A stretch of 64,000 nucleotides of DNA from Candidatus Parvarchaeota archaeon (GTDB lineage: Archaea > Nanobdellota > Nanobdellia > WJKC01). The translations under genes and the position numbers were made by a program. The stretch is taken from assembly GCA_030615175.1 (NCBI GenBank), contig JAUWZX010000001.1:460044-524043 (forward strand), written 5' to 3'. The notes under the pieces are model-generated. The model was given only the letters and a program-made list of their open reading frames with translations, was not told the origin of the DNA and did not search any database. Positions 34,273 through 56,893 of the stretch are shown piece after piece; within the stretch, counting starts at the first letter, position 1; each line of letters opens with the position of its first letter.

Positions 34273-34551
34273 TTATGCAGTGCGCAGAATCAAGTGGTAT
34301 CCGAATCTTGTCTTTATTGGTTCCTTAGTCATTTCATTTACTTGCAGGCTGAATGCTGCTGTCTCGAATGGTTTGACCATTGCTCCTCTGCCGAAGTACC
34401 CTAAGTCTCCTCCACGCTTCCTTGAAGGGCACTCGCTTAATTCCATTGCCACTGTCTTAAAAGATTCTCCTTTACTGATTCGCTCCAGTGCTAGTAATGC
34501 TTTTGATAACTTGGAGCATAGTATGTGAGAGCACTTAACTTTATTAGCCAT
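34273..34551 (-). CDS. parvulin-type peptidyl-prolyl cis-trans isomerase (PpiC)
   Basis: SHIL...[21 protein letters not shown]...FGYHLI. Start at the ATG at 34551. Confidence 0.8.
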
Positions 34552-34611
34552 GTTTAATTGGATTAGAAGGATAATCTTTAAAAAGTCTTTCATTATTCTC
34601 TTATTGTTATT

Positions 34612-35118
34612 ATGAAGTCTCATGAAGCTTTAGGCAAAGCCTGGCATAAGCCTAAGGAAATGGAAGGTTACAAGGAATTATTAATAGGGTTAAGAAGCAG
34701 GCATACTATAACTAGAGTTGAGAAGCCTTTAAGGCTTGACAGGGCGCATTCAGTTGGTTATAAGGCTAAGCCAGGGTTCATTACTGTTCACGTTAAGATT
34801 AAGAAAGGTGGTCGCAAGAGGCGTCAGGTTCATAGGGGGCGGAAGCCGAGTAAGATGGGCATTAAGGGGTTCACTACTAAGAAGAGTCTTCAATTAATTG
34901 CTGAGGAGAGAGCTAATAAGAAGTATCCTAACTGCGAGGTACTTAATTCTTACTGGCTTGCCGAGGATGGCAGGCATAAATGGTTTGAAGTCATCCTGCT
35001 TGACAGGATTAATCCTTCAGTATTGTCTGATAGTGAAGCTTCTAGAGTTGTTAAGAGACGTAAGAGGGTTTATCGCGGCTTAACTAAAAGTGGCAGGAAA
35101 ATGCGCGGTTTATTATAG
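34612..35118 (+). CDS. rpl15e: ribosomal protein eL15
   Basis: [30 protein letters not shown]...[20 protein letters not shown] matches eL15. Confidence 0.9.
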
Positions 35119-35156
35119 AAAAAAGTTTTTAAACACAGAAGCATTATTAATTCCTA

Positions 35157-35621
35157 ATGGTGAGGGGTAGTAAGGCCAGTCATGTGAGTGTTGCAGCGTT
35201 TAATAAGTCATGCATGGACTTTAATAAGAAATTTTCAAGAATTGAATCATTATTAGGTAAGTTGGATAAGGGTGTTAAGAACAAGGTTTCAGTTTCTGCT
35301 TGGAATAAGTCGCTTGAGGATTTAAATGCTAAAGTTAATGAGTTGTTCACGGTAAGTCTTGAGAAAACAGTTTCTGAATTAAATGATAAGCTGGATAAGT
35401 CTGTTGAATTAATTAATGAGTTAATGATTCACTTGAATGAGAAGGTTAGTGTTTCTGCTTGGGAGCGCAGTTGCGTTGAATTGGAAGGATTATCATCTGA
35501 TTTAAGGTCTTTAAGGTCTGTTCTTGATGATGTTAAGTTAAAAGTCATGAAGCTTGAGACTGATTTTAATGATTCAATTGTTAATGAGAGTGAAATTAAA
35601 GGATGGTTGAAGTCATTATGA
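35157..35621 (+). CDS. coiled-coil protein with internal repeats (154 aa)
   Basis: The motif KVSVSAW(N/E)(K/R)S occurs twice, and the related VSVAAFNKS once. Confidence 0.5.
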   Translation: MVRGSKASHVSVAAFNKSCMDFNKKFSRIESLLGKLDKGVKNKVSVSAWNKSLEDLNAKVNELFTVSLEKTVSELNDKLDKSVELINELMIHLNEKVSVSAWERSCVELEGLSSDLRSLRSVLDDVKLKVMKLETDFNDSIVNESEIKGWLKSL

Positions 35622-36352
35622 TATTCTTGTTCGGTCGTAAAAAAGAAGTTAAGAAGGAGTTTGTGCCTCCTCTGCCGGAAGAATCTAAGAAACTTAAGAA
35701 GCCTAAGAAGATGAAGCCTAAAATGAAGCCTAGGAAGATAGTGATGGGGGTTGCACCGGCATTAATGCAGGATGTTAAGGCCAGGGTTAGGGCTATTAAG
35801 GCAGAGCGTGATGAATTAAGGATGAGGAGTGAGGAGTTGGAGGATAAGTATGAGGACGCGCTTAACAGGCTTGGCGTGGTGGAGGGTAAGTGCAAGGCTG
35901 TTGAGAATTCATTTAATTCTTTTAAGGATGATTTAATGACTGATTTCATGGAGGAGGCTCGTAAGGTTTTGAAGAAGGAGATGAAGCTTCAGGGTGATGC
36001 GGTTACTGCAACTTATAGAAGGGTTTTAAGGATTGAGGATGATTTAATGAATATTAATAAGGATTTTGATGATTTGAAATTCACGACTTCATTTAGTGAT
36101 TATTATCATTTAATTAAGTGCTTGATTTTTTTCATGACTAATTGCGAGTCAAGTGATCATAGGTTAATCACTATTTCCTTGCAGACCATTAGGTCAATTA
36201 TTAGTGATATGAGGGCTAATGGTTACTGGAAGTCAGGAAAGGATGCAATTATTACTTCCTTGCTTAACCTTAAGGCTTATTGGAGGAGTAAGGATGAGCG
36301 GGTTGAGAATTTAATAGGCGTTGAGGTTGACGCTTTAGAGAGTTTGAGGTGA
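35603..36352 (+). CDS. hypothetical protein (249 aa), basic/coiled-coil N-terminal half
   Basis: ORF overlapping the previous gene by 19 nt. No motif recognised. Confidence 0.5.
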   Translation: MVEVIMIFLFGRKKEVKKEFVPPLPEESKKLKKPKKMKPKMKPRKIVMGVAPALMQDVKARVRAIKAERDELRMRSEELEDKYEDALNRLGVVEGKCKAVENSFNSFKDDLMTDFMEEARKVLKKEMKLQGDAVTATYRRVLRIEDDLMNINKDFDDLKFTTSFSDYYHLIKCLIFFMTNCESSDHRLITISLQTIRSIISDMRANGYWKSGKDAIITSLLNLKAYWRSKDERVENLIGVEVDALESLR

Positions 36353-36359
36353 TTTATTA

Positions 36360-36578
36360 ATGGATGAATACGGTATTTACGTAGGTAAGAAGACAGGTAA
36401 GAGGAGCCCTAGGAGCGGCGTAGCACTTTGGAGGTGGACTCTTGTTAAGAGGACTTCGGAGAAGCCTTCAGATAATGAGATTAAGTCTGAGATTAGGAAG
36501 AAGGGTGGCTTGATGGGTTACGCTATGAGGCTTAAGCCTAGACCGTGGAAGAAAGTAAGTAAGACTATTAAGATGTAA
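36360..36578 (+). CDS. small basic hypothetical protein (72 aa)
   Basis: ORF only. Confidence 0.4.
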   Translation: MDEYGIYVGKKTGKRSPRSGVALWRWTLVKRTSEKPSDNEIKSEIRKKGGLMGYAMRLKPRPWKKVSKTIKM

Positions 36579-36579
36579 A

Positions 36580-36586
36580 TTTTTTT
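36580..36586 (+). terminator. oligo-T archaeal terminator candidate
   Basis: A T7 run starts within the stop codon of the gene ending at 36578 and is followed by two hairpins (CCACTT-ATGA-AGTGG and GAAACTTT-TAG-AAAGTTTC). Confidence 0.45.
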
Positions 36587-36704
36587 GTGGGGGAATTATA
36601 GCCACTTATGAAGTGGTATAGGCTATCTTAGGATTTCCTTTGAAACTTTTAGAAAGTTTCATCAAAAGAAACGTTTTTAAGTCTTTATTATTATTTATTT
36701 ACTT

Positions 36705-36770
36705 GTGGATGATGACGCTCATTGAGCGGCTGAGGCTTATCGGATGATTAAGGCTATTTATCACTGAGAG
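36705..36770 (+). ncRNA. candidate C/D-box sRNA
   Basis: C box ATGATGA 36709-36715, D' CTGA 36730-36733, C' ATGATTA 36744-36750, D CTGA 36764-36767. The spacers are 14 and 13 nt, slightly longer than the canonical 12 or so. The first spacer is itself the palindrome CGCTCATTGAGCG. Confidence 0.35.
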
Positions 36771-36836
36771 CTTAAAGTTCAATGACGTGTAAACCGCACA
36801 ATGACGAGCTAAATCAAAAGCCAATGAATGAAGATG

Positions 36837-36849
36837 GGCGGTCTGACAC
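36837..36849 (+). repeat. cassette-junction element, copy 1 (core GGCGGTCTGACAC only)
   Basis: Exact 13-mer shared with 41982 and 42411. Preceded by ATGAATGA. Confidence 0.6.
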
Positions 36850-36936
36850 AAATATGTCCAAACCGCAGGGGAATCTTTATACGTGATAAACATACTAAAA
36901 CTGTAAATAGTTGAGATTAATATACTTAAAAGTAGT

Positions 36937-38232
36937 ATGAAAAATGAAAAGATTGTTTCAGGTTATGGAAACATTACTAATTTGATTACTAACTCCAAAC
37001 ATAAAACAAAGTTTAGTTTAAAGTACCAAAATGGTGAATTATTTTTACAGATAACAAGTAGAATTGACCCTAAAGACATTCATGGAAACTTCTTTTACAA
37101 ATTTGAGAGTAAAACCAAAAAAAGCCTTCTTTTGATAGAAAGATTATATTTAGAGAACCATAATATTTCTCATAATTATAAAACTAAAAAAATCTCTTTT
37201 TGTTATACTTTCAAAGCATTGTCAGAAGCGGTGTTATCAAAAAAGAAGGGTAAATATGTTAAAGTAGAAGGTTATCTAACAAATTTCTTTTTTTTTGGAA
37301 ACAAAGTTGTAAGATATAAAAGAAAGGGTGGTTTTTATTTAGGTCGTGATGCTCTTACATTTAAAGCCAATAGTAGGGCAGTTCTTATAAAAAAATTATC
37401 TAATTATGCGACTTTAGAAAAGAAAAAACCAGTTTGCTCACTGATTGAGACCTCTAAGCTCTTTATGGATGGCCATAATGAAAAAAATGATATTAAGTTA
37501 TTAGATGTTTTAATGTTAATGCTTTCAATAGCAGTAAAAAGAAAGATAGAACTAACTAAAATCCTATTTAAGGATAGGAATGGAACTATTTTGAAGAGGA
37601 TTTATAGACCTTTGTTTAAGCACATGAATCTTTATTTTTTTGAATTAATACCCACTAATGATGTTTATACAAGATTATCTGGTTTTATTACGAAAACATT
37701 TGATAAATTTTCTAAATTGGAAGAGAAGTTAAAAATGTCTATTTATTACTATCTTTTGTCACACGAAAAGAGCGATTTTTATCATAAGTATTTATACTTA
37801 ACAATTGCACTGGAATCATTAGTGAGGGAAATAAGACACATTAAAGAGATAAAGATTAATAAATTTGATAAAAGAATATTAAATGAATTAAAAGGTTTGC
37901 CTTACTTCAAATATTATTATAAACTATTTAAAAAGCAAGTTGATGAACTAATCAAAAAATTGTCTAAATCCTCTTTAAGAGAAGAAACAAAAGAGGCCAT
38001 AAAATCATTAACTCTTAATTATCAAGGGAAATCTTATGATATTTCTAAATATAGGTTTCCAAAGATAAGAGGAAAAATAGCTCATGGACGACTCAAGGAA
38101 TTGCCTAAGAATTTGAATATTATTGATTTAAATCAGCTTTCTCATCTTTATGATAATCTCTTGTTGAAACTTTTAGAGTATAAAGATGAATACTATGACA
38201 TTTTATTAAAGAACCTTAAAAGAATAGAGTGA
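36937..38232 (+). CDS. HEPN-domain protein (ApeA-like architecture), candidate defence/abortive-infection nuclease
   Basis: C-terminal FPKIRGKIAHGRL fits the HEPN R-x4-H motif (R codon at 38068), with an upstream LTIALESLV helix. 431 aa. The most AT-rich gene in the window by eye. Confidence 0.5.
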   Translation: MKNEKIVSGYGNITNLITNSKHKTKFSLKYQNGELFLQITSRIDPKDIHGNFFYKFESKTKKSLLLIERLYLENHNISHNYKTKKISFCYTFKALSEAVLSKKKGKYVKVEGYLTNFFFFGNKVVRYKRKGGFYLGRDALTFKANSRAVLIKKLSNYATLEKKKPVCSLIETSKLFMDGHNEKNDIKLLDVLMLMLSIAVKRKIELTKILFKDRNGTILKRIYRPLFKHMNLYFFELIPTNDVYTRLSGFITKTFDKFSKLEEKLKMSIYYYLLSHEKSDFYHKYLYLTIALESLVREIRHIKEIKINKFDKRILNELKGLPYFKYYYKLFKKQVDELIKKLSKSSLREETKEAIKSLTLNYQGKSYDISKYRFPKIRGKIAHGRLKELPKNLNIIDLNQLSHLYDNLLLKLLEYKDEYYDILLKNLKRIE

Positions 38233-38420
38233 TTATTAACCTTTGTAGAAATCGAAGTATTAGGATATCAATAATAAAGACGGAGAGAAAAAACTTGTCA
38301 TCTGTTGTCTTTTATTCTATTCTAACAGGGTTATGGCCATTATTGCTCATTTAGACTAATATTAAATGGTGATACATTAATAGAAAAGATTATATTTTGG
38401 TATTATAATTATTATTTTAT

Positions 38421-38960
38421 ATGAAAATAAAGGACAATATAAAAAGAGTTGAAAAGTTAATTTTAAATATTAATAAAATAATTGATGAAGGAGCATTTAG
38501 TAATAATTCTAAAATGTTGGATGGGGCAAGAGATATGACAATCCAAACAAAACAATTAATTAGAACACTTTTTTCTGATGCTACAGATAGGATGAGTGAT
38601 TTTGTTGGAAGCATGAAAAATGCTGTAAAAAGAGACAGAGGCACGAAGTATTTTAAAGAGCAAGCGAAGGTAATACGCAGATATCTTGTTGTAATAAAGG
38701 ATTCTTTGGAATCAAGGGAAACAATTGAACTAAAAGAAAGTAAGTTAGATAAAATTGATAAAAAATTAAGAGAAATGGAAGTCGAATCCAAAAGGCGAGA
38801 GAAAGTTGCTGAAACTAAGTTTTGGGGCGCATCTATTGAGATGATAGATAAATTAAGAGAACAAATTAAGGAAGATGGAACTATTAAAGAAGAAATAATT
38901 AATATAAAAACTGAATTAAAAGAAATTAAGGAGATGCTTGTTAAGATTAAGAAAATTTAA
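38421..38960 (+). CDS. coiled-coil hypothetical protein (179 aa)
   Basis: Charged heptad-like sequence. Shares a cassette with the HEPN gene. Confidence 0.5.
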   Translation: MKIKDNIKRVEKLILNINKIIDEGAFSNNSKMLDGARDMTIQTKQLIRTLFSDATDRMSDFVGSMKNAVKRDRGTKYFKEQAKVIRRYLVVIKDSLESRETIELKESKLDKIDKKLREMEVESKRREKVAETKFWGASIEMIDKLREQIKEDGTIKEEIINIKTELKEIKEMLVKIKKI

Positions 38961-39125
38961 TCTTTGAAAAGCAAAAGAAATTAAGAACTTTGGGTTGCCC
39001 TAGAGCATGGCAAGTTGCCCAACGACTGTCTCTGAAGTAGCAAACGAATGATACTAAAACTAAAAGACAATTGGCACCTTATTGGGTGGCAGGGCAGTAG
39101 CCACAACACAAAAAACGTTCTTTTT

Positions 39126-39164
39126 GGTGATTGGAGTCGAATTTATGCGTGAACGGTCTGACTC
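39126..39164 (+). repeat. cassette-junction element, copy 2 (39 nt)
   Basis: GGTGATTGGAGTCGAATTTATGCGTGAACGGTCTGACTC. Confidence 0.65.
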
Positions 39165-39172
39165 TTTTTAAA

Positions 39173-40384
39173 TCAGTATCCTTTATTTTTACCTTTTATT
39201 TTCCTTATTATTTTTTTCGTACCTTTTGCCATTTTTGAGAATGTTTTATATTTTATTTGGAAAAAAAGACCAACTATTATAAGCGTGCCTAATAATACTA
39301 ATGAACCTATTAAGCCATTACCGTCCATTATCATAAACCCTGTTGGTCCTGTATCAGATGTTATTCCAGTTTGATTCACTGAATCCTCTTCTATAACTTC
39401 TTCTACTTCGTCTTCTATTATTCTATCTTCTTCTATAACTTCTTCTGGCTCTTCAGTTAGTATTTCTTCTTCAATCTCTTTTTCTGGTTCTTGCTCTGGA
39501 GTGTATTCGCAGGCTTGAGTTTGTTGTATTACTGCAGAACAATTATTTAAATCTTCGCAAATTCTTGTTTGATATCCTGTTTCATTGCACTCACTCCATT
39601 CAGAGCAGTTATAGTTTGGAGTACACGTTGGTCTGAAAAATGTTCCTCCACCAGAAGGCGTTGGTGCAGGTACAACCCAAGTAATAATTATCTCTTTGGT
39701 TGAGAATGTAAGACAGAAATTAACTATTTTTGTTGTTTCATTATAAGTGAAAGTTATTGGATTATCATTAACTTTAATCGAGTAAGGTTCTCCTTTTTCC
39801 GCATAGATATCAAAGCATTTTTCTCCTGACGAAGTTACTTGTAAATTAATATTTTCGCTATCAGAAGTTATGGATTGAATTGTTACATTAAATTCAGGAA
39901 TTATTACATACGCTTCTTTGGTTTCTATATAAACCAATTCTTCACCGGGCGGAATTATCCTATCAACAGTTACGTTATTGGGTAGTGTAATAGTTGTAGT
40001 AATATTTTGTGAAGTTGGATTAGTTGTATTGTAAGTTATTGGTTCTATAGTTTCATCATCTTTTAGAGCGTATTGCTCTATAACGTATGTGTAGTTGCCA
40101 GCAGAATTCACTGCTGTTGTTAGAGTTAAAGTGGTTCTGTTATCAGTGCAAATGCATTTGAAAGATTTTACATTATTTTCTACACTTGCACTTAGTGCAG
40201 TGCAGTCCGGTTCTAGAGTATATTCGCCTTCATCTTGGATTGGTGAGATTGATATGCTCACTAATAGTTCCGTACATTCCCCATCAAAAATATTAATTGA
40301 ATCCCCACCAGTTAAAGCTAAAACTGGTTGAATAAGCATAAACATGAATGCTAAGAACATTATTTTTTTCATTTTATTAAACAC
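39173..40384 (-). CDS. cell-surface protein: signal peptide, Asn-sequon-rich domains, Cys motif, acidic linker, C-terminal TM anchor
   Basis: N-terminal MFLAFMFMLIQPVLALTGG. Many N-x-S/T sequons. CTPNYNCSEWSECNETGYQTRICEDLNNC. Glu-rich linker. C-terminal LVLLGTLIIVGLFF plus a basic tail. Confidence 0.7.
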   Translation of the reverse strand: MFNKMKKIMFLAFMFMLIQPVLALTGGDSINIFDGECTELLVSISISPIQDEGEYTLEPDCTALSASVENNVKSFKCICTDNRTTLTLTTAVNSAGNYTYVIEQYALKDDETIEPITYNTTNPTSQNITTTITLPNNVTVDRIIPPGEELVYIETKEAYVIIPEFNVTIQSITSDSENINLQVTSSGEKCFDIYAEKGEPYSIKVNDNPITFTYNETTKIVNFCLTFSTKEIIITWVVPAPTPSGGGTFFRPTCTPNYNCSEWSECNETGYQTRICEDLNNCSAVIQQTQACEYTPEQEPEKEIEEEILTEEPEEVIEEDRIIEDEVEEVIEEDSVNQTGITSDTGPTGFMIMDGNGLIGSLVLLGTLIIVGLFFQIKYKTFSKMAKGTKKIIRKIKGKNKGY

Positions 40385-40470
40385 ACCTTATTTTATTCCT
40401 CGTTTACATTTTTTCCGTCTTTCCCATAAAAAAAATAAAAAAGGAAAAAAAAGGGAAATCCATTTAATTA

Positions 40471-41487
40471 CTAATTTGGACTGATGTTTGTAGTTATTGT
40501 GTAAGTTCCTGGCGTCAATGCTACATTAAAGTCGTTGACGATATAGAAGCTCAGTATTTCTCCTGGTTGTAGTGTCAATGGTAGTTCAAGTGCTCCCACC
40601 AATTCTGCATATACATAGTTTGGTACATCCATATCTACTAATGGATTAGCCCAATCGAAGTAAGGAGTAACACCATCAGGTACTGACATTTGCTCATAGT
40701 CGTAGTCATTGAATCCAGTGCCAATTGCTAGATTTAATGCCCAATGGAAGTCTTCTCCAAGTTCAGATTTGTCAATAGTTATTGTGAATATTCCATCTGG
40801 ATTATTCTCACGGTCTCTTTCACCTGTTGCAGATACCCAGTCAAGTTCTGTTAATGGTGTGTTATCATAGCTTGAATGCCATCCCATCCAGCCATCGTCA
40901 ATCGTTGGTCCCCAAGGACTCATTAACCAAGTTCCCCAATCATATGTTGCATCTGTCCCATCGTTGTTGTGTATTTGGAACACTGGTTCGCCATCAATAG
41001 CTATGACCAATCCTACCGTCAGTTTACCATTACCTAATGGGTCGTATGGTTCTGTCATTGGATAGTCAATAGTCCATTTGATTGAATCGCCCAAATCCTC
41101 AACAGTTATATCTACTGGTTGTGTTCCAACTGTATCAACAAATGAATATTCTGTTTCTTTAAGATATGTTGTTGTAATTCCATCTATTACTCCAGTTTCG
41201 AAATTTACTGTTGCTGTAACTTCTGCGTTATTTGTTAATGTATGTGAGTCACTTATGATTGTATTTCCTGCCACACTTGGAGTGACATATGTGTTAATTT
41301 GTAGATAATTTCCTTCATCAACCAATACTGACTGCGCTACTGTTACCGTTCCTGTTATCGTTCCAAAAAACTCCAGTAACGCTCCGCTTGCTAATCCAGT
41401 CATTAACAAACCAAACACTAACAAAACACCAGTCCGTCTTCCTAATTTGCCTAATCTTTCTTGTATTTTCATGGTATTAATTGACAC
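40471..41487 (-). CDS. secreted protein with N-terminal signal/anchor (338 aa)
   Basis: N-terminal RRTGVLLVFGLLMTGLASGALLEFFGTITG. Trp/Asp-rich beta-type sequence. Confidence 0.6.
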   Translation of the reverse strand: MSINTMKIQERLGKLGRRTGVLLVFGLLMTGLASGALLEFFGTITGTVTVAQSVLVDEGNYLQINTYVTPSVAGNTIISDSHTLTNNAEVTATVNFETGVIDGITTTYLKETEYSFVDTVGTQPVDITVEDLGDSIKWTIDYPMTEPYDPLGNGKLTVGLVIAIDGEPVFQIHNNDGTDATYDWGTWLMSPWGPTIDDGWMGWHSSYDNTPLTELDWVSATGERDRENNPDGIFTITIDKSELGEDFHWALNLAIGTGFNDYDYEQMSVPDGVTPYFDWANPLVDMDVPNYVYAELVGALELPLTLQPGEILSFYIVNDFNVALTPGTYTITTNISPN

Positions 41488-41591
41488 TTAAAGATAGTTA
41501 TAAATGTTTCGATTCACTTTACTTTTAGTAAGTATTAGGTTTTTATGGTTCGGGAAAAATCAATAATGAGTATAACTTACTTTATTATTAG

Positions 41592-41864
41592 ATGACTAAC
41601 AAAGGCATTTTAAAGTTACTGGCAAAGAAGTATGTTTTTGAAATACTCACAGCACTAGAAGAAATGCCAAGAAGGTTTAAAGACTTACTCACAGCCTGTG
41701 AGGGCGAGAAAATGAGAACTCAAAGACTAAGAGAACTAGAAAATATTAAATTAATATTCGTAAGAGTCGAAAGGGTTGGTAGGAGACCAGTATCAATTTA
41801 TAACATTTCTAAAAGAGGCAGAGAAGCACTGCGTTTAATAAAGGAAATAAAAAAGATTATTTAA
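41592..41864 (+). CDS. winged-helix transcriptional regulator (HxlR/ArsR-like, 90 aa)
   Basis: KYVFEILTALEEMPRRFKDLL...MRTQRLRELENIKLI... shows a wHTH pattern. Confidence 0.6.
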   Translation: MTNKGILKLLAKKYVFEILTALEEMPRRFKDLLTACEGEKMRTQRLRELENIKLIFVRVERVGRRPVSIYNISKRGREALRLIKEIKKII

Positions 41865-41981
41865 TCTCATTAGCCATTCTCATCGGTTTAACATTCTAAA
41901 AAACCAAAAAAACGTTAATGTGTTCCTGCGCCCACGCAGTTTTAGAAGTCTAATTCATGGTGGGCTTCGCCAGCCAAGCAA

Positions 41982-41994
41982 GGCGGTCTGACAC
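41982..41994 (+). repeat. cassette-junction element, copy 3 (core; the extended variant starts near 41944 and carries an insertion)
   Basis: GGCGGTCTGACAC. Upstream AGAAGTCTAATTCATGGTG aligns with GGAGTCGAATTTATGCGTG of copy 2. Confidence 0.6.
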
Positions 41995-42046
41995 ATAAAA
42001 AGCTATAAATAAAACTATAAATAAAGCATTTGAGCTAGAATACTTG

Positions 42047-42409
42047 ATGTCTGAAATCTTTGAATTATTAAATCAGTATAAAAAATTAGCAGAAGAATAT
42101 GGATGGAAGATGAACAAAGAAGGATTAGATGATGGATACTTATTCTTTGAAAAAATGTTCATAACAAAGAGCATTAAGGAAAGCAAGGGATTACTAGAAG
42201 ACCTAGGATATGAATCAAGATGGCAAATTGAACCATCAGTCCACATATTTAATAATGAATCCATAGGACCTGGATTCGAATTAGGATACTATAATGGAGA
42301 ATATGGACGAGGAATAAATATGACATTAAGATTAGATAAAAAATTAAAAAAACCACTAAAAAACGTATTTGAAGAATTAAAAATAGTAATTAAAAAAATA
42401 AAATCTTGA
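42047..42409 (+). CDS. hypothetical protein (120 aa from the ATG)
   Basis: ORF. TATA-like AACTATAAATAAA about 29 nt upstream of the ATG at 42047. Confidence 0.5.
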   Translation: MSEIFELLNQYKKLAEEYGWKMNKEGLDDGYLFFEKMFITKSIKESKGLLEDLGYESRWQIEPSVHIFNNESIGPGFELGYYNGEYGRGINMTLRLDKKLKKPLKNVFEELKIVIKKIKS

Positions 42410-42410
42410 T

Positions 42411-42423
42411 GGCGGTCTGACAC
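42411..42423 (+). repeat. cassette-junction element, copy 4 (short form)
   Basis: TGATGGCGGTCTGACAC, starting at the TGA stop codon of the preceding gene. Confidence 0.6.
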
Positions 42424-42469
42424 GTGAATGCACAAGTTTTATAAATTAATTAAACATGGATGTTTTGTC

Positions 42470-42817
42470 ATGGTTCAAAGGTATTTTATTGAATTATATG
42501 AAAACAATGAAGGGAAAGCCATGTTCACGTTTCCATACTATGAAGGCATGGAAAACATATTTCAAAAAGAATCATTTACTGGTTCGGATTTAATTAAGAA
42601 AGTTAAGCCATTCTTCTTTGAAGGAGGTAATGATTTTGTGAAAGAATATGAACAATTAAAACAACTAATTAATACTCAATTAAGTTATAAAGTTAAAACA
42701 GGATTCTACAAACCAGAACCACCCGTTAGAGTAGGCCTCAACGGAAATCTAACAATAGGACTTGATTCCGGACTTGATTTTTTAGAAAATTTATTACAGA
42801 AAATAAAGAAGAAATAA
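42470..42817 (+). CDS. hypothetical protein (115 aa)
   Basis: Start moved to the ATG at 42470 (MVQRYF...), because TTTTATAAATTA is centred about 28 nt upstream of it. Confidence 0.5.
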   Translation: MVQRYFIELYENNEGKAMFTFPYYEGMENIFQKESFTGSDLIKKVKPFFFEGGNDFVKEYEQLKQLINTQLSYKVKTGFYKPEPPVRVGLNGNLTIGLDSGLDFLENLLQKIKKK

Positions 42818-42855
42818 TTGATAAGCATTAATTCTGTGTATGAACGGTCTGACAC
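42817..42855 (+). repeat. cassette-junction element, copy 5 (39 nt)
   Basis: ATTGATAAGCATTAATTCTGTGTATGAACGGTCTGACAC. Shares its first nucleotide with the TAA stop. Confidence 0.65.
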
Positions 42856-42890
42856 ACAAAATTTTAAATAACTCAAAACTTTATGATTAC

Positions 42891-43146
42891 ATGAAGAAAA
42901 GTAAAAATGAATTATACTTAAGATTTATAAAGAGAAAAAGGGAGGGGATTTATCATAAAAAACGAAGAAGAACAGGAAATAAATGATTCGAAACCATTAC
43001 GTTGCAGACTAGGGTTGCATAAATGGGGTATGAAGATATATCATGAAGAAGAAGGCAGTTTTGAAGACCACTCAATCAAGTCATGTATTCTATGCGGCAA
43101 AGAAAAGAAAGGCACAAGGAAAATGGCATGGGATTATAGCAAATAA
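42891..43146 (+). pseudogene. small cassette ORF interrupted by a +1 frameshift in an A6 run (or a homopolymer sequencing error)
   Basis: The ATG at 42891 sits about 25 nt after AAAATTTTAAATA. Frame 0 stops at 42986. Removing one A from 42957-42962 joins it to the frame open to 43146, giving about 84 aa with C-x4-H...C-x2-C. Confidence 0.4.
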
Positions 43147-43184
43147 TTGATAGGCATCAAGTTTGTGCGTGAACGATACGACGC
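43146..43184 (+). repeat. cassette-junction element, copy 6 (39 nt)
   Basis: ATTGATAGGCATCAAGTTTGTGCGTGAACGATACGACGC. Confidence 0.6.
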
Positions 43185-43223
43185 GCAATTATTTATATAA
43201 CTTATTACTAAACTTTTTTTAAA

Positions 43224-43835
43224 ATGATACAGAAAATCACTAAAGAAATAGTGCCTTACGATATACTAATACAAACTTTATGCAAGCTGCCTTATTATGG
43301 ACACGGCAAAGGATGCATAAATCATGGAAAAAAGAAAGGCTGCCCTCCACGAAAAACAATAGAAAAACATTTTAACTTAAATAAAGAATTATTCGTGATA
43401 TACACTAAATACAAAGTAGGAGAATTCGCGGAGAAAATGAGAATAAGACATCCAGAATGGACTGAGAAAGAATACCCTGACAAACAGGCAAGAAAAAAAG
43501 AACACATACTAGAAGAAATATTAAATAAATTAAGAGCAAAGCATCCGGACTGGCCGGAAACATACTACCAAAAGAAAATAACGAGTACTTGGAATTCATC
43601 AAGACAATGGTATAATCCCAGACGATGGCAGCAAACAGCAAGAAAGCAGCATGAAAAGGAATTAAAGAAATTAAAAAAAGAAGGAATAATAATTAATAGA
43701 TGCCCAGAAGCATTAGGAATAAATATTACGGGCTTAATGGCGAATATTGGAATTAAATTAAACTGGCAGTGGCCGCCAGAACATAACAAAGAAAACAAAA
43801 CTTACATAATTTCAATAGCAGGATATAAAAAGTAA
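43224..43835 (+). CDS. hypothetical Cys-motif protein (203 aa), possible metal-binding
   Basis: LCKLPYYGHGKGCINHGKKKGCPP cysteine cluster. The rest is charged and helical. Confidence 0.5.
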   Translation: MIQKITKEIVPYDILIQTLCKLPYYGHGKGCINHGKKKGCPPRKTIEKHFNLNKELFVIYTKYKVGEFAEKMRIRHPEWTEKEYPDKQARKKEHILEEILNKLRAKHPDWPETYYQKKITSTWNSSRQWYNPRRWQQTARKQHEKELKKLKKEGIIINRCPEALGINITGLMANIGIKLNWQWPPEHNKENKTYIISIAGYKK

Positions 43836-43873
43836 TTGATGGCCAGTCATTTCATATAAGAGCGATGTGATAC
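43835..43873 (+). repeat. cassette-junction element, copy 7 (39 nt, most diverged)
   Basis: ATTGATGGCCAGTCATTTCATATAAGAGCGATGTGATAC. Confidence 0.5.
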
Positions 43874-43909
43874 AAAAATTTATGAATTCATAATCCTTAT
43901 TTGTAAGAA

Positions 43910-44521
43910 ATGAAGACTCGTAAAGGAAAAAAGGCATTAGTCATAAACCATAACTGTTCTGTAATAAAAGAATTAATAGATTTACTTAACTTAGAAGGTT
44001 ACTCTTCACTTAAATTAAGTTACAATAAACTAAGAGGAGTTAAAGCAGAAAATTTTAATGTAGTCTTCTCAGCAGGCGGAAAAACAAAAATAACTAATAG
44101 CACTGAACTAAAGGATGAATTAAGAATCTGGAAAGAATGCCAAGAAAAGGACATACCATTGATGGGCATTTGTCATGGAGCCCAAATAGGAGCTTATTAC
44201 TCAGGCGGTAAGTATTCTAAATTAAGAGTTGCCCGCAAAGGAATCTTTGATGATTACAAAGTTAAGAAAGATGACCCAATACTGAAAGGAATTAAAAAAC
44301 TGGTTGCAATAGACTGGCATGAATATGGAATAAACAGTGTTGGAAAAAAATGGGATATTATCATGACTGATAGTACTGGCGAGATTCAAATCGCAAAACA
44401 TAAAAATTCAAGAGTTTACTTAATTCAATTCCATCCAGAGTTAAAGAGACCGAAGAAGGGAAAACAAAAAACAAATGCTGAACTCATTATTAATAATTTT
44501 CTAAAAATTGTTAAAGAATAG
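43910..44521 (+). CDS. class I glutamine amidotransferase-like protein
   Basis: Nucleophile elbow MGICHGAQ and IQFHPE His-Glu motif. Confidence 0.7.
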   Translation: MKTRKGKKALVINHNCSVIKELIDLLNLEGYSSLKLSYNKLRGVKAENFNVVFSAGGKTKITNSTELKDELRIWKECQEKDIPLMGICHGAQIGAYYSGGKYSKLRVARKGIFDDYKVKKDDPILKGIKKLVAIDWHEYGINSVGKKWDIIMTDSTGEIQIAKHKNSRVYLIQFHPELKRPKKGKQKTNAELIINNFLKIVKE

Positions 44522-44526
44522 TTTTT

Positions 44527-44565
44527 GGTGATAAACGTCAAATTTATGCGCAAATGACGTGACAA
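44527..44565 (+). repeat. cassette-junction element, copy 8 (39 nt)
   Basis: GGTGATAAACGTCAAATTTATGCGCAAATGACGTGACAA. Closest to copy 2. Confidence 0.55.
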
Positions 44566-44598
44566 GCATACAAAAGTATTTATTAATTAATTAAATAA

Positions 44599-44940
44599 AT
44601 GTTTTTCATGAAAGATAATGAACTAAATGATTTAGAAGTTGCACTGGACATGTATAAAACAGGCATGTCTAAAGCAAAGAATAAATATGTTACTGCAAAA
44701 AACTTAGCTGAATCCCTCGCTAGTTTTAAAGAAGTTTATGAAGCTGTTTTTGGAGCAGTATATGACAAGAAAACAATTAATTTAGATGATGACGGCGACT
44801 TTAATGAATTTGCTAAAGCACTGCTTGAACTGGAATTAAAAGACTTTACGACAGTCATTGAAGACGTATTTCAAATAGAAGACCATAAAGAAGCTGAAAT
44901 AGTTGCCAAACCATTCTATGAAAGATATGATAAATCATGA
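44599..44940 (+). CDS. hypothetical acidic protein (113 aa)
   Basis: ORF only. Confidence 0.45.
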   Translation: MFFMKDNELNDLEVALDMYKTGMSKAKNKYVTAKNLAESLASFKEVYEAVFGAVYDKKTINLDDDGDFNEFAKALLELELKDFTTVIEDVFQIEDHKEAEIVAKPFYERYDKS

Positions 44941-45012: not shown

Positions 45013-45333
45013 ATGAAGTATTTTTTAGTATACAATAATTCTGAGAATAACCCTGTTATTGCTCAAATACGTTTGAATAAGGAACCAGTAATTGGTACAA
45101 GAATCTTATTCTATGATAAGGACCCAATGCTGGATTTTGAAGAAGAAGTGACAGGAGTAAAGAATGATTGCTTAAAAAACATAGACTACGCAAGCATTTA
45201 TAAGATAACCAAGAAATTAATTCACGATAATGGCATAATTGAAATAAGGAAAACAAAGAATTTCAGAGAAGAACCGAATTCAGAACTGGAAAGAAAGTTA
45301 ATAATGCTAAAGCCAAGCAACCACTCTAGTTAA
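45013..45333 (+). CDS. hypothetical protein (106 aa)
   Basis: ORF only. Confidence 0.45.
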   Translation: MKYFLVYNNSENNPVIAQIRLNKEPVIGTRILFYDKDPMLDFEEEVTGVKNDCLKNIDYASIYKITKKLIHDNGIIEIRKTKNFREEPNSELERKLIMLKPSNHSS

Positions 45334-46042
45334 GAATCCTTGTTAAATCAAATTTTTTGCCATCAAATTCCCTTGTAATCTCGAAAAAATTAATTCCACG
45401 CTTATCAATATACTTTAATGAATAAGGAATGTCAGCGAAGATATTCAATTTCTCTAAATTTTTAATATTAAACCATTTATTAAGCCTGTCAACAGTCTTC
45501 TTTTTCAACTCACCAGCAAATTCATTACACTTGAAGACATAGAATAAATGATGAGAATGAATATCATCCTTATTATACGTTCTCATTGAGTAAATAATTT
45601 TAAGCTTTAAATCCTTAGGCACGTAACCAGTTCTCTCAATAGTTTGCCTGACAGCGCTTTCCTTAATTCCTTCCCCAAAACGCACTCTGCCAACAACACT
45701 AGTAGCCCAAACCCCTTTAAACGGCTCTCTTTCAAGCCTTGATAACAAAATCTTACCCTCCTCCCTAATAATCACTCCGGCAATAACAAATGGCTGCTTA
45801 TGAACCCCCATGTCATTTAAGTCAACATAAATCGCTAATTCATTGCCAGTATTAGTTAATGAATACAAACCATCCTCATCCTTTTTTATAATACCAAGCT
45901 TAACTAATTTATTCAAATGATAGTTGAAGTGATTAGAACGAATATTACTATCCTGCAACTGTGAAAAACTAAGTCCAGACGCATACATTAATTTCTTAAA
46001 AATGTTCTTTCGAACATCATGATTTAATAAATTTAACTCCAT
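45326..46042 (-). CDS. wHTH + degenerate Nudix domain regulator, paralog 1
   Basis: N-terminal wHTH (LSFSQLQDSNIRSNHFNYHLNKLVKLGIIKK). C-terminal Nudix fold with box GRVRFGEGIKESAVRQTIERTGY, where the RE-x2-EE glutamates are mostly lost. Confidence 0.65.
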   Translation of the reverse strand: MELNLLNHDVRKNIFKKLMYASGLSFSQLQDSNIRSNHFNYHLNKLVKLGIIKKDEDGLYSLTNTGNELAIYVDLNDMGVHKQPFVIAGVIIREEGKILLSRLEREPFKGVWATSVVGRVRFGEGIKESAVRQTIERTGYVPKDLKLKIIYSMRTYNKDDIHSHHLFYVFKCNEFAGELKKKTVDRLNKWFNIKNLEKLNIFADIPYSLKYIDKRGINFFEITREFDGKKFDLTRILN

Positions 46043-47922: not shown

Positions 47923-48180
47923 CTAATCGAATAATTCTGATATTAAGTCCTGTATTTTCATTAGTGAGGATTGCACTCCCTTAACGTCACTAATGGAATC
48001 CATGGCAACTTCACCAACTTGAGTTTCATTAGTTATCATTCCTGTCACTGCCTCGTAAACACCGCTTACCTGCTCGCCAAGGGAGTTTAATAAAGGGATT
48101 ATAACAAACAACCCAACAAATAATATAATAACACCAATCCAGACAGTTACTATTAATTTTATCATGCTCTTCTTATTCAC
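47923..48180 (-). CDS. 85-aa single-pass membrane protein, translationally coupled to the giant gene
   Basis: N-terminal TM helix LIVTVWIGVIILFVGLFVIIPLL. Its start overlaps the giant ORF stop by 4 nt. The C-terminus SSLMKIQDLISEL resembles the giant-protein tail SLELMIQDLSDIL. Confidence 0.65.
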   Translation of the reverse strand: MNKKSMIKLIVTVWIGVIILFVGLFVIIPLLNSLGEQVSGVYEAVTGMITNETQVGEVAMDSISDVKGVQSSLMKIQDLISELFD

Positions 48181-51100
48181 ATTAATCCCTCCATTAAATC
48201 ATATACTTTAACAAGTATGTCTGATAAGTCCTGAATCATTAATTCTAGACTATTATAAATGTAATTAACATTCGCTTCTGACGGCTGGTCCTTAACAGTA
48301 GTGATATATGTTTTCAAGTCATCAGCCCTGTTAATTAAGTCATGGTAACTATCATATATAACCTGCCACTCTGCCAGTTTACCAGTTTCTCCCACATCAT
48401 TATAGTAACTAATAACGCCCAGTAAGTCCAGTAGACTATTATTAAGTTCTTTATTAAATGAGGTAAGCCTGGCATCTAACTCCTCTAACTGCATTTTATA
48501 AGCCATGGTCGGGTTATCATCCTCTGTTATGAATTTTGAAATGCACTTATTGTTAATGCATACAGGTATTGCCTTGCCCAGAGTGCATTCAGTAATCACT
48601 GAAGGACAGATAGGGTTAAGTTCAGCCAGGCTCTTAGTGATTGCACCGCAACCAGAGTAACACATGCAGTCATCATCAGTAACGCATCCTAACTCAACTT
48701 CTTCATCTATAACGTAAGTAATATTGCTTTCATCAACTTCCTCATCAATGCACATGTTATCTGAGCAATTCATGCCAGCGGGGCAGCCAGCATCTAAACA
48801 GCAGTTAAATGAAGTTTCGTAATCCTGTACTACGCCGTCACCGCAAGTTGCTTCATCAACGCATGAAATCTCTAAAGGTGAAATTAAATCACAAGTTCCA
48901 ACCGTGCAGGTACAGTCCAGACAGCATGCTTCAGATGTTTCACTTGGACTGCAGATGCCGTCACCGCAGTACTCTTCTGCACAAATAAAGTCCTCTGGCT
49001 TAATGAAGAATAATATATCCCATCCAGTGATTGTCTGTGATAAGGCAGTGTAAGGTAGGCAAACGCCGGTCTCGCAGCCAGCATCTAAACAGCAGGTTTC
49101 AGGTGTTTCCCCTGCTGAAACAAGCCCGTCACCGCAGAAAGCATTATTCATTGGAACGCAGCCCTTAACATTAGCATAAGAAGAGGTTAAATTACAAACT
49201 TTGTTACCGCAGTCACAATCATTTGGTGCTGTAACGCAGTTTTCTCCAACACTTGGCGAGCAAATGCCATTAGTAGCGCATACCTGAGGCGAGCAGTCAT
49301 AAGAGCATGAAGTGCATTCTCCAGGACCGCATTTCTTGTCACCGCAGCATGATTCAGCTCCTCCAGGGCACTCGAATACTGGCACGCAGCCCATTTTATC
49401 AGCTCTTACATTATCAGGGTCGCATTCAATGCTGCTAGGACAGAAGCAGGCAGGTGAGTTAAGGCAATTATCTCCTAAGCCGGGACTGCATATCTTTGAT
49501 GAATTAACAAATCCCTCTACCGTGATGCAGCCCATTAAGTCAGCGCTTGGAGCTACTGCGCCGTCAGAGTGAACACCGCAATTAAATCCTATAGGGCAAA
49601 CACAGTCTATTGGGTTTGCGTAACAGTTTTCTCCATAACCGCATCTGTAATCAATAATGTTTTCATAAATAACGCAGCCCTGCAAGTCAGTTTTTACGCT
49701 GTCAGGATTGCAGTATGAATCTTTAGGGCAGCGAGCGCAGTCAAGTGAATTCATGCAATTCTCAGTTCCATCGCACACGCCGTCATTACAGACTTCACCG
49801 GAAGGGCAGTCATCTATTTTTAATTCAATTTTGTAAACACAGCCCTTGAAATCAGAATCCTTGCTTCCAGGATTGCATTCAGCTCCTGATGGGCACGCGC
49901 AGTCAATTGACTTGCAGTTCTCTCCGAAGAAAGTGTCGCAGTAATCATCCCCTTCTTCAAAATCGTAGTCAAGCATGCATCCCATGAAGTCCGCGCTTGA
50001 GTCTTTTGGATTGCATATGAATCCTTCAGGGCATTCGCAGTCGCTTGAACTTAAGCAGTTCTCGTTAGGGTCGCAAACATTTTTCCCTCCAACGCATTTA
50101 ATATCCTGGCACCACCCAGTGTTTTGTTCTGTTGTATTCATCATTACTCCTGAAATATCATACATTGTGGTTAATATCATGTTCTCGCACCAATTCCTTC
50201 CAGCGCTTTCACAGTTTTCTTTAGTGTAACAATTCCAGTATTGTTCATAACCGCATGTCGGGCAGGTATAGTCTGTGCACCATGTCTCACACCAGTTACC
50301 ACTCACATTAAGGCATTCTGATTCAGTGAAGCAGTTCCACGGCATGCTTGAACTGCAGGTCGGGCAGGTATAGTCGCTGCACCAGGAGCCCCATTTATCA
50401 CTGCACCAGTTACCTTCATTATTAACGCACTCGCTTTGAGTATAGCAGTTCCATGGCGTGCTTGAACTGCATGTTGGGCAGGTATAATCTGTACACCATC
50501 CGCCCCACATATCAGAGCACCAGTCGCCATTTATTCCTTCACAGTCTTTTTCACTGGCGCAGAGCCATACCTGTTCATTGCTGCACACAGAGCACGCGTA
50601 CTTATCACACCAGGAGCCCCACTCGTCAGAGCACCAGTTAGCTTCCGCTCTCTCGCACTCGCTTTGAGTATTGCAGTTCCATGGCAGGTTTATTGAGCAC
50701 TTAGGGCACTCATAGTAACTGCACCAGTCACCGCACCAGTAACCGCCTGCTGATGTGCACTCAGAAGCTGTTGAACAGAAATCAAGATAATCCTTACTGC
50801 ATGATATACATTTTTCTGACTGGCACCAACCGTTCTTTTCATCACCGCACCAGTTTGCTCCAGCACCCTTGCATTCAAGTTTTGTTTTACAATTCCATGA
50901 CTGGTATTCTAAGCACGTTAAACAAGGAGTTTCCTGACAATAATTATCACACCAGTAATTATTATTTACTATGCAGTCATCTTCAGTATAGCAATTCCAT
51001 GGCATGCTTGAACTGCATGTTGGGCATTCATAGTCGCTGCACCATCCGCCGTAATGACTTTCACACCATTTAGCTCCTACATTAGTGCATTCCTGTTTTG

Positions 51101-54819: not shown

Positions 54820-55686
54820 CTAATGAAGAATTAGGCACTTAAGGTAGTCCTTGCCTGTTCTTTGTTTTAGTAATTTTTTCCACGCGTTCTCCAGAGTCTT
54901 AGGCTTGAATTCAGGAGGTTCATTACCATTTAACCGCGTGTAAGTTGGCGAGTAAAGAGAGATTTGCAGTATATTAACTTTTTCAGGCCGTTGTATCACC
55001 ACGTCAAATAAGTCCTCTAAATCCAGTAAGTCTTTCTCGTCCTGTATTAAGTCAATTAAGTAAATTGAATAATCATCAAGCACGTCCTCCATGTACTCTA
55101 AGTTCTCCAACTGCTTGTACCAAATCTTGCCTGGCAGCCCGGTATTTTCCTCAAAATTCTTTTCACTTATCCCTTTAATGCACATCTGGAATTGCACGTT
55201 TGACTGATTGATTAATTCTTCCTTATGAAGCTTTCTCGTTAAGTTAGTGTCAATGTTTAATCCGTATTCATGAGGGAATTCACGTATTATTTTGTACAGG
55301 AATTGCGGGAAAAGTGTTGGTTCTCCTCCACTAATCCTTAATGCATTAACATCTTCATTCTCATTTAAGTAAGTCACTACTTCATTGAGTACCTGATTAA
55401 CTGGTTTATTAATCCCCCTGCTAGCATCCTTGTTCTTGTCATCAACATAGCAGAACCAGCAGTTCATATTGCATTTATTAACCTGGCTTGTTAGAACCTT
55501 GTTCGTTTTATAAGGGCTTAAGCCAAGTTTTCGCGATGCCACGAATGGAACCCTGCCAAATTCTTTCTTCTTCTTATTAATATTCCACATGTAATAGTAA
55601 ATCCTGTAAGTATCATTTATTATATCACCGCTTTTCTTAATATCCTCTTTCTGTTTTCCTTCATTAAAGTTTGTTAAATAAACCAA
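54820..55686 (-). CDS. radical SAM enzyme, paralog 2 (288 aa)
   Basis: CNMNCWFCYVD (C-x3-C-x2-C) and ISGGEPTLFP (GGE SAM motif). Aligns with the 377-aa paralog along its length. Confidence 0.75.
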   Translation of the reverse strand: MVYLTNFNEGKQKEDIKKSGDIINDTYRIYYYMWNINKKKKEFGRVPFVASRKLGLSPYKTNKVLTSQVNKCNMNCWFCYVDDKNKDASRGINKPVNQVLNEVVTYLNENEDVNALRISGGEPTLFPQFLYKIIREFPHEYGLNIDTNLTRKLHKEELINQSNVQFQMCIKGISEKNFEENTGLPGKIWYKQLENLEYMEDVLDDYSIYLIDLIQDEKDLLDLEDLFDVVIQRPEKVNILQISLYSPTYTRLNGNEPPEFKPKTLENAWKKLLKQRTGKDYLKCLILH

Positions 55687-55754
55687 TTCAATGATTTTTA
55701 TCCTATCTTTCTTTTAATACATTTATTTAGTTTAAAATAATGATTCCAAGCCAG

Positions 55755-56471: not shown

Positions 56472-56536
56472 GTAAATTCTTTTGGATGAAGTTACTAATA
56501 AATTTAACCATTTTTTTAAAAAAAAATAATAATGAT

Positions 56537-56893
56537 TTAGATAATGAATTCTAGCATAGTAACATCATCATTAACTGTTACTTGATCTCCATATATGCTT
56601 CTTAATTTTTTAACTAGGTTTTCTAAACCATCACCCATGTATTCCTCTGGCACGTTTTTTAACAACGTTTTTTGTTTGTCAACCAATTTAAGTGTTAAAA
56701 CTGTCAGCGCTGTTTCAGGATTCTTACCAACCGTGATGTCAACAAGGCTTCCAATTTTGTAATCCTGGTTGTCAAAATACTTTGTTCCATACCTTAATTC
56801 ATACCACGCGCTCTTAACTTTAATTTCTTCTTTTATGTAATCACTCCATTTCTGTTCGTCTTCTCTTTCCCATAAATTAAATTTTGGTGTCAT
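56537..56893 (-). CDS. small ASCH/PUA-like domain protein (118 aa) - tentative
   Basis: Size and pattern (...LKLVDKQKTLLKNVPEEYMGDGLENLVKKLRSIYG...VTMLEF) resemble ASCH-fold proteins. Judged by eye only. Confidence 0.35.
   Translation of the reverse strand: MTPKFNLWEREDEQKWSDYIKEEIKVKSAWYELRYGTKYFDNQDYKIGSLVDITVGKNPETALTVLTLKLVDKQKTLLKNVPEEYMGDGLENLVKKLRSIYGDQVTVNDDVTMLEFII

Follow-up and report, generated by a model that had tools for sequence, protein, structure and literature searches.

In a 64-kb stretch of the 727-kb genome of a Candidatus Parvarchaeota archaeon (contig JAUWZX010000001.1, positions 460,044 to 524,043; here called the window), small genes are separated by eight copies of a short junction element that all have the same orientation. 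Several described systems invite comparison with this arrangement. Integrative elements target the 3′ ends of tRNA and transfer-messenger RNA (tmRNA) genes, leaving direct att repeats. Repetitive extragenic palindromic (REP) sequences and bacterial interspersed mosaic elements (BIMEs) are imperfect palindromes of ∼35–40 nt that follow stop codons, are transcribed as part of the 3′ untranslated region (UTR) and can stabilise mRNA; they are dispersed, occur in both orientations and are mobilised by REP-associated tyrosine transposases (RAYTs). The attC sites of integrons measure ∼57–141 nt, compared to 39 nt for the element studied here. Known cases of kink-turns (k-turns) bound by L7Ae in mRNAs reportedly lie in 5′ UTRs. 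Integrons with canonical attC sites have been reported from archaea (Ghaly et al. 2022, PMC9668308), and Daume et al. (2017, PMC5539422) link L7Ae-bound k-turns in archaeal mRNAs to translational control. In Pyrobaculum, the C box of a downstream small RNA (sRNA) supplies the stop codon of the upstream open reading frame (ORF) in 23 cases (Lui et al. 2018, PMC6009581). The sRNA genes of this genus also duplicate, and P. calidifontis has a 15-copy C/D family that resembles miniature inverted-repeat transposable elements (MITEs) and has degenerate inner boxes (PMC6009581).

DPANN archaea have very small genomes, and the routes by which they gain and lose genes are little known. Here we describe the junction elements of the window and compare the locus with contigs from three strains, L021 (ERZ23498665), L027 (SRR22936148) and L028 (SRR31655980), and with L029 (L029/L030; Joint Genome Institute (JGI) 3300033156 and 3300033145). 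L029 represents a sister species, in which ribosomal protein L15e is 87% identical and the DNA ∼68% identical to the window; the evidence on turnover between strains comes from a small sample. All copy counts, the confinement of the element and the recombinase scan refer to the window. The elements may well be 3′-UTR modules that descend from a local family of box C/D-type sRNA genes, in an island whose gene content varies.

Results

Copies of the junction element

The initial annotation had placed eight copies between 36.8 and 44.6 kb, all on the + strand, and each was recovered at its position. Five of them align as gapless 39-mers (39126, 42817, 43146, 43835 and 44527), as had been proposed, with pairwise identities of 18–29 of 39 positions, compared to 10.6 ± 2.9 for random pairs of 39-mers from the window. 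The invariant columns are T3, G4, A5, T6, A15, T17, T21, A27, G30, G35 and A36. The core GGCGGTCTGACAC is exact at 36837, 41982 and 42411. The copies at 36837 and 41982 end longer units, described below; the reduced copies are the following.

39126..39164, + strand: 39-mer between convergent genes, 166 nt past the stop codon of 38421-38960 and 8 nt from that of 39173-40384(-)
42407..42423, + strand: short copy TGATGGCGGTCTGACAC, 17 nt, called the 18-mer; its TGA is the stop codon of gene 42047-42409; identical in L027
42817..42855, + strand: 39-mer with intact core, starting inside the TAA of 42470-42817; identical in L027
43146..43184, + strand: 39-mer with decayed core CGATACGACGC; 4 substitutions per 39 nt in strain L021
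43835..43873, + strand: 39-mer with decayed core CGATGTGATAC; strain L021 keeps the first 16 nt only
44527..44565, + strand: 39-mer with the most decayed core, TGACGTGACAA

The 8-mer GGTCTGAC occurs 6 times in the window against 0.53 expected, and CGGTCTGACAC, with at most one mismatch, occurs 5 times, always on the + strand and between 36839 and 42855. When a position weight matrix (PWM) built from the five 39-mers was run over both strands of the 64 kb, the copies scored 37–50 and the next best site 5, so that no further copy came to light. None of the other ∼55 intergenic regions in the window contains the element, which disposes of the suggestion that it is simply the generic terminator or promoter consensus. 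Its core is intact at 10–11 of 11 positions in copies up to 42.85 kb (39126 and 42817 included), and at 6–8 of 11 in the three distal copies.

The reported contacts with stop codons were confirmed: TAATTGAT occurs three times, TGATGG once (the TGA at 42407–42409 being the stop codon), and in one case a TAG has GGTGAT 5 nt further on. In four independent units the start of the element coincides with the stop codon. Similarity between copies ends 2–5 nt past the core and the promoters beyond it are not collinear, which ruled out a mobile promoter. Strict full-length patterns gave only single chance matches, in unrelated and mostly high-GC bacteria, when collections of genome, metagenome and viral contigs (source genome not among them) were searched.

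A pair of small RNA genes at the head of the island

The copy at 36837 forms the 3′ end of the second of two adjacent RNA genes predicted from sequence.

36706..36770, + strand: sRNA1, canonical box C/D sRNA by prediction (C 36709-15, D′ 36730-33, C′ ∼36744-49, D 36764-67), found with a regular expression for C/D architecture
36781..36849, + strand: sRNA2, box C/D-like (AAUGACG, AUGACGA, AUGAAUG, D box CUGA 36843-46); its last 13 nt are the core copy 36837-36849

With its C, D′, C′ and D boxes, spacers of 12–14 nt, and boxes and guides that are conserved in L029, sRNA1 is by sequence a box C/D sRNA. In Rfam it gave weak matches to sR5 and sR30, sR5 scoring 19.3 bits against a gathering threshold of 40. 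Directly 3′ of it, sRNA2 shares with its L029 counterpart the box-like motifs RAUGACG, AAUGACGA, RAUGAAU and CUGA, but not the spacers. The 3′ end reads AGAUGGGCGGU-CUGA-CACA in the window versus AGAUGGGCAGU-CUGA-CACA in L029, where the counterpart of copy 36837 is AGATGGGCAGTCTGACACA. Homology to L029 spans window positions 34288–36853, stops four bases past the core and resumes only at 62313. Because the sRNA2 unit is conserved in L029 up to this shared end, copy 36837 corresponds to the tail of an ancestral RNA gene, from the final D-guide nucleotides through box D into the 3′ flank (CAC); judged by its occurrence at the same place in the sister species, this copy is the ancestral one.

Ten contiguous pairs, including one G.U, are possible between the D guide of sRNA2, GAUGGGCGGU, and ACCGCCCGUC, a universal segment of 16S; the pairing was worked out by hand, with the segment taken from the primer TGYACACACCGCCCGT and not from the organism's own rRNA. 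The box-D+5 rule would put the target at the equivalent of Escherichia coli C1402, within a proposed duplex covering 1398–1407. We consider sRNA2 a probable box C/D sRNA. Searches for a structured RNA upstream of sRNA1 or upstream of 39126 returned nothing significant, and patterns of the sRNA2-end core gave only chance matches on viral contigs.

A long form ending at core 41982

A second full-size unit, here also called sRNA3, ends in the core at 41982.

41918..41996, + strand: long form, structured RNA of ∼80 nt ending in core 41982-41994

The fold of 41908–42000 is better than that of 199 of 200 shuffles (z = −2.69). Strain L027 is collinear with window 41908–43085, and its identity to the window is 54/80 (68%) over 41900–41979, 15/15 over the core (41980–41994), 7/10 over the next 10 nt and 98.4–99.3% further right. 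Through this divergence the structure of the long form is conserved: of its paired columns 39 are the same and 3 changed, all compatibly, compared to 29 and 22 for unpaired columns (Fisher p = 1e-4, with the structure derived from the same two sequences).

The C box is an intact AUGAUGU in L027, followed by GUCCAUGCACCC, versus a decayed UAAUGU in the window. A 10-nt guide of the L027 form, UCCAUGCACC, is also found in the guide region of the C/D family snoMe18S-Gm1358 (E = 4.7). Its 9-nt core CCAUGCACC matches the archaeal 16S primer GCCATGCACCWCCTCT and is thus complementary to 16S; we propose that this D′ guide pairs with the GGUGCAUGG segment of 16S, a pairing judged on universal 16S segments known from primers and not on the organism's own rRNA. 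In the window both the C box and the L027-type guide are damaged, and the long form looks alive in one strain (L027) and decaying in the window. As it has the same 5′ (AUGAYGUGU) and 3′ (GGCGGUCUGACACA) ends as sRNA2 around a different interior, we regard the long form as a paralogue of sRNA2.

Sequence and structure of the reduced copies

The cores of full-size and reduced copies are homologous. The 18-mer (TGATGG-CGGTCTGACAC) aligns with the 3′ end of sRNA2 at 16 of 17 positions plus a 1-nt gap (p = 0.002). In the 39-mers, UGAU (columns 3–6) and the GA of box D are invariant, the most decayed ones included; compared to the C box RUGAUGA the reduced copies have 4–6 of 7 matches, and CUGA is found in 5 of the 8 copies and GA in all. 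A 39-mer assembled as a chimera of the 3′ half of sRNA1 and the end of sRNA2 was also considered and was not significant.

Two short inverted repeats recur. The first (IR1, TGAT-N4-RTCA) is paired in 92% of cells, and the second (IR2, columns 19–24 with 37–42) in 72%, with three pairs changed on both sides. Overall, 80% of cells pair in register versus 15–52% when the arms are slid, and eight pairs are G.U. Since G.U pairs are kept, the + strand acting as RNA (or single-stranded DNA) fits better than the symmetry of a duplex. These statistics are based on six sequences, with the structure derived from the same set, and the kept pairing is suggestive only. The GA...GA arrangement of a k-turn is present, and the flanking stem is kept in three of five copies, non-canonical pairs being left unscored.

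Genes and promoters between the elements

The elements divide the island into a large first block and a run of small genes.

36850..41981, no strand assigned: first block, with the 14-nt direct repeat GGCGGTCTGACACA in identical form at both ends (36837, 41982)
41995..44940, + strand: run of small genes 42047-42409, 42470-42817, broken mini-ORF 42892-43146, DUF2284 gene 43224-43835, glutamine amidotransferase (GATase) gene 43910-44521, and 44608-44940

The first block (5.1 kb) holds a 431-aa gene, a 179-aa gene, two minus-strand genes and an HxlR winged helix-turn-helix (wHTH) gene. Profile searches upheld part of the labels proposed earlier, namely the HxlR wHTH (41592) and the GATase (43910), and assigned the gene at 43224 to the DUF2284 family. 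The HEPN label of 36937–38232 did not stand: for this 431-aa protein no support was found in Pfam, PADLOC or NCBIfam, and only the motif RGKIAHG (Rx4H) is seen by eye. Comparison of the cargo with PADLOC, NCBIfam and PHROG gave no matches. The broken mini-ORF (42892–43146, + strand) is a small Cys-rich ORF split over frames 42840–42986 and 43015–43146; its layout is the same in L027 and L021, at 97–99% identity.

TATA-like octamers are located 29–35 nt before nearly every ATG of the array, in agreement with the promoters annotated earlier, and lie 5–24 nt past the element (52 nt for 36837). From the spacing to the ATG it follows that the genes are separately promoted and their mRNAs probably leaderless.

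Variation between strains and species

Gene units in this region differ between strains: one unit is absent from L021, L027 has a divergent allele, and in L028 the 431-aa gene is located elsewhere. The unit at stake in L021 is the following.

43851..44566, + strand: strain-variable unit, comprising the 3′ part of element 43835, a promoter, the GATase gene and element 44527; absent from L021

Strain L021 is 97% identical to the window; its positions 1–751 match 43100–43850 and its positions 749–1097 match 44567–44915, with a 3-nt overlap. Position 43850 is thus joined directly to 44567, and the GATase unit is missing. The junction retains 16 nt of element 43835, none of the other element, and a 3-nt CAT microhomology, and it looks like an illegitimate deletion or insertion and not an in-register exchange between elements. 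As regards the persistence of junctions amid changing content, one unit is absent in L021, with breakpoints out of register with the element. The divergent allele of L027 ends 7–10 nt past core 41982. In L028 (positions 1–2222) the 431-aa gene, 94% identical, lies between unrelated genes and has no element. There it directly follows an unrelated ORF, and the next ORF contains the Fic/Doc-like motif FIDGNKRTAH, read by eye.

Homologues of the DUF2284 and GATase genes in other lineages have different, non-shared neighbourhoods with no element nearby. Being unlinked and without the element elsewhere, they indicate that the array was assembled in this lineage. In L029, the island that follows sRNA2 is a different one of 6.5 kb; it holds MazE/ParE and HNH genes and no further copy of the core. 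The MazE/ParE pair and the HNH gene (L029 13112–14028) fit an insertion hotspot after sRNA2. At 1.4 kb past sRNA2, L029 11018–11960 is a stretch rich in frameshifts and stops that looks by eye like a decayed tyrosine recombinase. An integrase search of this stretch returned only Phage_int_SAM_5 at E = 0.098, and PDB, PHROG and viral-contig searches were negative.

Tests for mobile elements and integrons

The initial annotation had likened the array to an integron-type cassette platform while noting that an integrase and an attC-like inverted repeat were missing. Both absences were borne out. No recombinase, integrase or transposase domain was found in the 50 ORFs scanned across the window, and among them no Phage_integrase or IntI protein turned up beside the array; a CALIN (see below) does not need one. 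At no junction was there a GTTRRRY/RYYYAAC (R″/R′) pair or a long imperfect palindrome, the arms measuring 4–6 bp, in a scan made without an attC covariance model. The formal resemblance and the turnover of units remain from the platform idea; the missing recombinase and attC boxes and the TATA box of each unit tell against it. Together these three leave membership among integrons, or among clusters of attC sites lacking integron-integrases (CALINs), unsupported, and the integron reading survives as a loose analogy only.

Other classes of repeat were tried and rejected. A MITE was ruled out, as the ends of the element are not inverted copies and target-site duplications do not flank it. The same holds for REP/BIME, because the copies are confined to 8 kb of the 64 kb and the scanned ORFs encode no Y1 transposase. 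Clustered regularly interspaced short palindromic repeats (CRISPR) were excluded by a spacing of 0.3–5 kb, coding 'spacers' and the lack of an array-like repeat. Of the hallmarks of a tRNA-type integrative element, the exact 14-nt repeat at 36837/41982 is present; an integrase was not found in the window ORFs.

Other features of the window

The window has a G+C content of ∼35% and encodes ribosomal protein L15e and a run of ribosomal protein genes led by L3. Close homologues of its proteins carry the labels Pacearchaeota, Nanoarchaeia or 'archaeon', and we take the window to belong to a DPANN-type archaeal genome. A long-intron tRNA (21233–21352, − strand; 120 nt compared to a 71-position model) scored 41.7 bits in Rfam and was missed by ARAGORN. 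Two wHTH (HTH_20/DUF7347)-NUDIX paralogues with 80% identity over 237 aa (45326–46042 and 55755–56471, both on the − strand) lie ∼10 kb apart and bracket a DEAD-box helicase gene and a giant ORF. This ORF (48177–54440, − strand; 2087 aa) has no Pfam match, and its local G+C is 43–45% versus ∼35% elsewhere; the stretch is possibly foreign DNA. Two radical-SAM proteins and a QueC-like protein are clustered at 54820–59020 (− strand), adjoining the second wHTH-NUDIX paralogue.

Discussion

We give an even chance to the reading that the junction elements are 3′-UTR modules derived from a local family of box C/D-type sRNAs within a variable island. The shared 3′ module would derive from a box C/D-type sRNA gene and run from the final D-guide nucleotides through box D (CUGA) to CAC, with sRNA2 and the long form (41918–41996) as full-size members. 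The five 39-mers and the 18-mer would be reduced members that have lost the guide space. They retain a C-box-like UGAU, which supplies or abuts the stop codon of the upstream gene, a pair of short inverted repeats and the box-D GA. Each element may be transcribed as the 3′ UTR of the preceding, separately promoted and leaderless gene. With L7Ae as the probable ligand, its hairpins and box C/D-like ends could set the 3′ end of the mRNA or shield it, or could give rise to a small RNA. The elements would also occupy the short gap ahead of the next promoter, and the repeat copies might double as weak break-and-join points for the gain and loss of single genes. The passing remark of the initial annotation on a C-box/D-box k-turn came closest to this reading: the core is indeed the D-guide end plus box D of a C/D-like sRNA, and copy 41982 ends another such RNA, but the 39-mers do not qualify as canonical guide RNAs. 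Their boxes are just 24 nt apart, and those of the 18-mer 5 nt, which leaves no space for C′/D′ and two guides of ∼12 nt.

This narrow spacing is one of several observations that speak against an sRNA origin and function of the junctions. On the side of the RNA genes, sRNA2 matched Rfam families only at E = 3–10, nearly all of them C/D families, and in L029 the guide mispairs at one position with the proposed 16S target of sRNA2. The 39-mers and the 18-mer had no Rfam match at E ≤ 10, and over their first 28 nt the 39-mers do not significantly resemble either sRNA1 or sRNA2, so that the core is their sole link to an sRNA. The 39-mers fold no better than shuffled sequences (z = −1.1 to +0.9); the bulge of IR2 is 1 nt and not the 3 nt of a k-turn, and two of five copies lack IR2 altogether. 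Three distal cores have decayed to 6–8 of 11 positions, and copy 43146 changes faster than its surroundings (4/39 nt against a background of 3%, P = 0.03). Finally, an exact core of 11–13 nt in four differently built copies exceeds what a k-turn needs.

A rival reading is site-specific capture. The 3′ end of sRNA2 would then be the insertion site, in the role of attI or of the attB in a tRNA gene, units would bring or duplicate the core, in the role of attC or attR, and a recombinase gene would lie beyond the window unless the enzyme acts in trans. In a fuller version, self-promoted genes with a structured element ending in an 11–13-nt core would enter next to sRNA2, older junctions would decay distally, and the recombinase would sit elsewhere or come from a host, virus or plasmid. 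The break in synteny with the sister species at most 4 nt from the core is in line with this, as are the identical 14-nt direct repeats around the first 5.1-kb block, the gradient from cores intact to 42.85 kb to the three decayed distal copies, and the switch of L027 from 68% to 98–99% identity ∼10 nt from a 15/15 core. So are the unit that is present or absent between strains and an array assembled in this lineage, given DUF2284 and GATase homologues that elsewhere are unlinked and without the element. The decayed tyrosine-recombinase-like stretch of L029 would also belong here, but its one domain match has E = 0.098 and the PDB, PHROG and viral searches do not support it. In the 50 window ORFs no recombinase domain was found, the L021 junction is out of register with a CAT microhomology typical of illegitimate deletion, the divergent tract of L027 runs 7–10 nt beyond the core, the 431-aa gene moved without an element, and the core has only chance matches on viral contigs. 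We hold capture in its simple form unlikely, and the fuller version is to our mind equally improbable.

The decay of the distal copies could also mean that the elements are functionless scars, left over from local duplication of the 3′ ends of sRNA2 and sRNA3 during rearrangement of the island and kept only because the gaps are tiny and the events recent. Copy 43146, which evolves at least at the neutral-site rate, the weak folds and the existence of internal deletions (the 18-mer and the 16-mer of L021) are compatible with this, and two full-length and two core patterns went undetected in genome, metagenome and viral collections (source genome not among them). Scars would hardly be expected, however, to keep UGAU and the GA of box D without exception, the most decayed copies included, to preserve inverted repeats through compensatory and G.U changes, to retain a 15/15 core at 41982 within a 68%-identical tract, or to start at the stop codon in four independent units, and this account seems doubtful to us. 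The least likely reading, with very little probability in our estimate, is an operator or upstream activating site through which a DNA-binding protein such as the HxlR wHTH (41592), bound immediately 5′ of each BRE/TATA, would co-regulate the island genes. The wHTH gene does lie inside the array, copies stand 5–24 nt upstream of TATA-like boxes, and IR1 forms a TGAT-N4-ATCA dyad in two of them. This dyad is maintained, however, with G.T 'pairs', and these count as mismatches in the symmetry of duplex DNA; TGATNNNNRTCA is not enriched (12 found in the window versus 6.0 ± 3.2 expected). Between element and TATA box the spacing ranges from 5 to 52 nt, whereas the stop codon sets the position of the 5′ end; no + strand gene lies downstream of copy 39126, and copy 36837 belongs to a conserved RNA gene, of which it forms the 3′ end.

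The locus is a strain-variable island anchored on a pair of guide-RNA genes, its units punctuated by shrunken guide-RNA tails. If the copies work as RNA, C/D-type modules would have been reused as mRNA 3′-end elements; if they act as DNA sites, the island would be a new cassette platform anchored on an sRNA gene. Either way, it offers a concrete, testable locus with strains that are one unit apart.

Among known systems, integrons and CALINs share with the island tandem, unrelated short ORFs that are mostly in the same orientation, an element after each, similarity between copies and strain-variable content. They differ in that here no IntI was found in the window, R″/L″/L′/R′ boxes are lacking, the units have their own promoters and the first site is formed by the tail of an RNA gene and not by an attI beside intI. 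Elements that target tRNA genes are alike in the intact RNA gene at one end, the partial direct copies of its 3′ end, the variable cargo and the tandem accumulation at a hotspot. Here the target would be a C/D sRNA gene, to our knowledge unreported as an integration target, the units are 0.3–0.7 kb and they contain no integrase. REP/BIME repeats are likewise imperfect palindromes of similar length directly past stop codons, in the 3′-UTR setting that we propose, but the present copies form a single cluster in a single orientation, with no RAYT found in the window and much weaker palindromes. With the L7Ae-bound k-turns of mRNAs the elements have in common box C/D-like GA...GA motifs in untranslated regions, which may be L7Ae sites; the motif here lies in a proposed 3′ UTR, and a canonical k-turn with a 3-nt bulge is not evident.

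The C/D family of Pyrobaculum is similar in the UGA of the C box at the upstream stop codon, in being a lineage-specific family with good terminal boxes, degenerate inner boxes and guides of poor conservation, and in the location of its copies in regions without alignment to related genomes. Its copies are ∼50–60 nt long with flanking inverted repeats, compared to 39 and 18 nt, one orientation and an 8-kb cluster in the window, and they lie on average 322 nt from the nearest gene, whereas the copies here stand directly between genes and are without the terminal repeats of MITEs.

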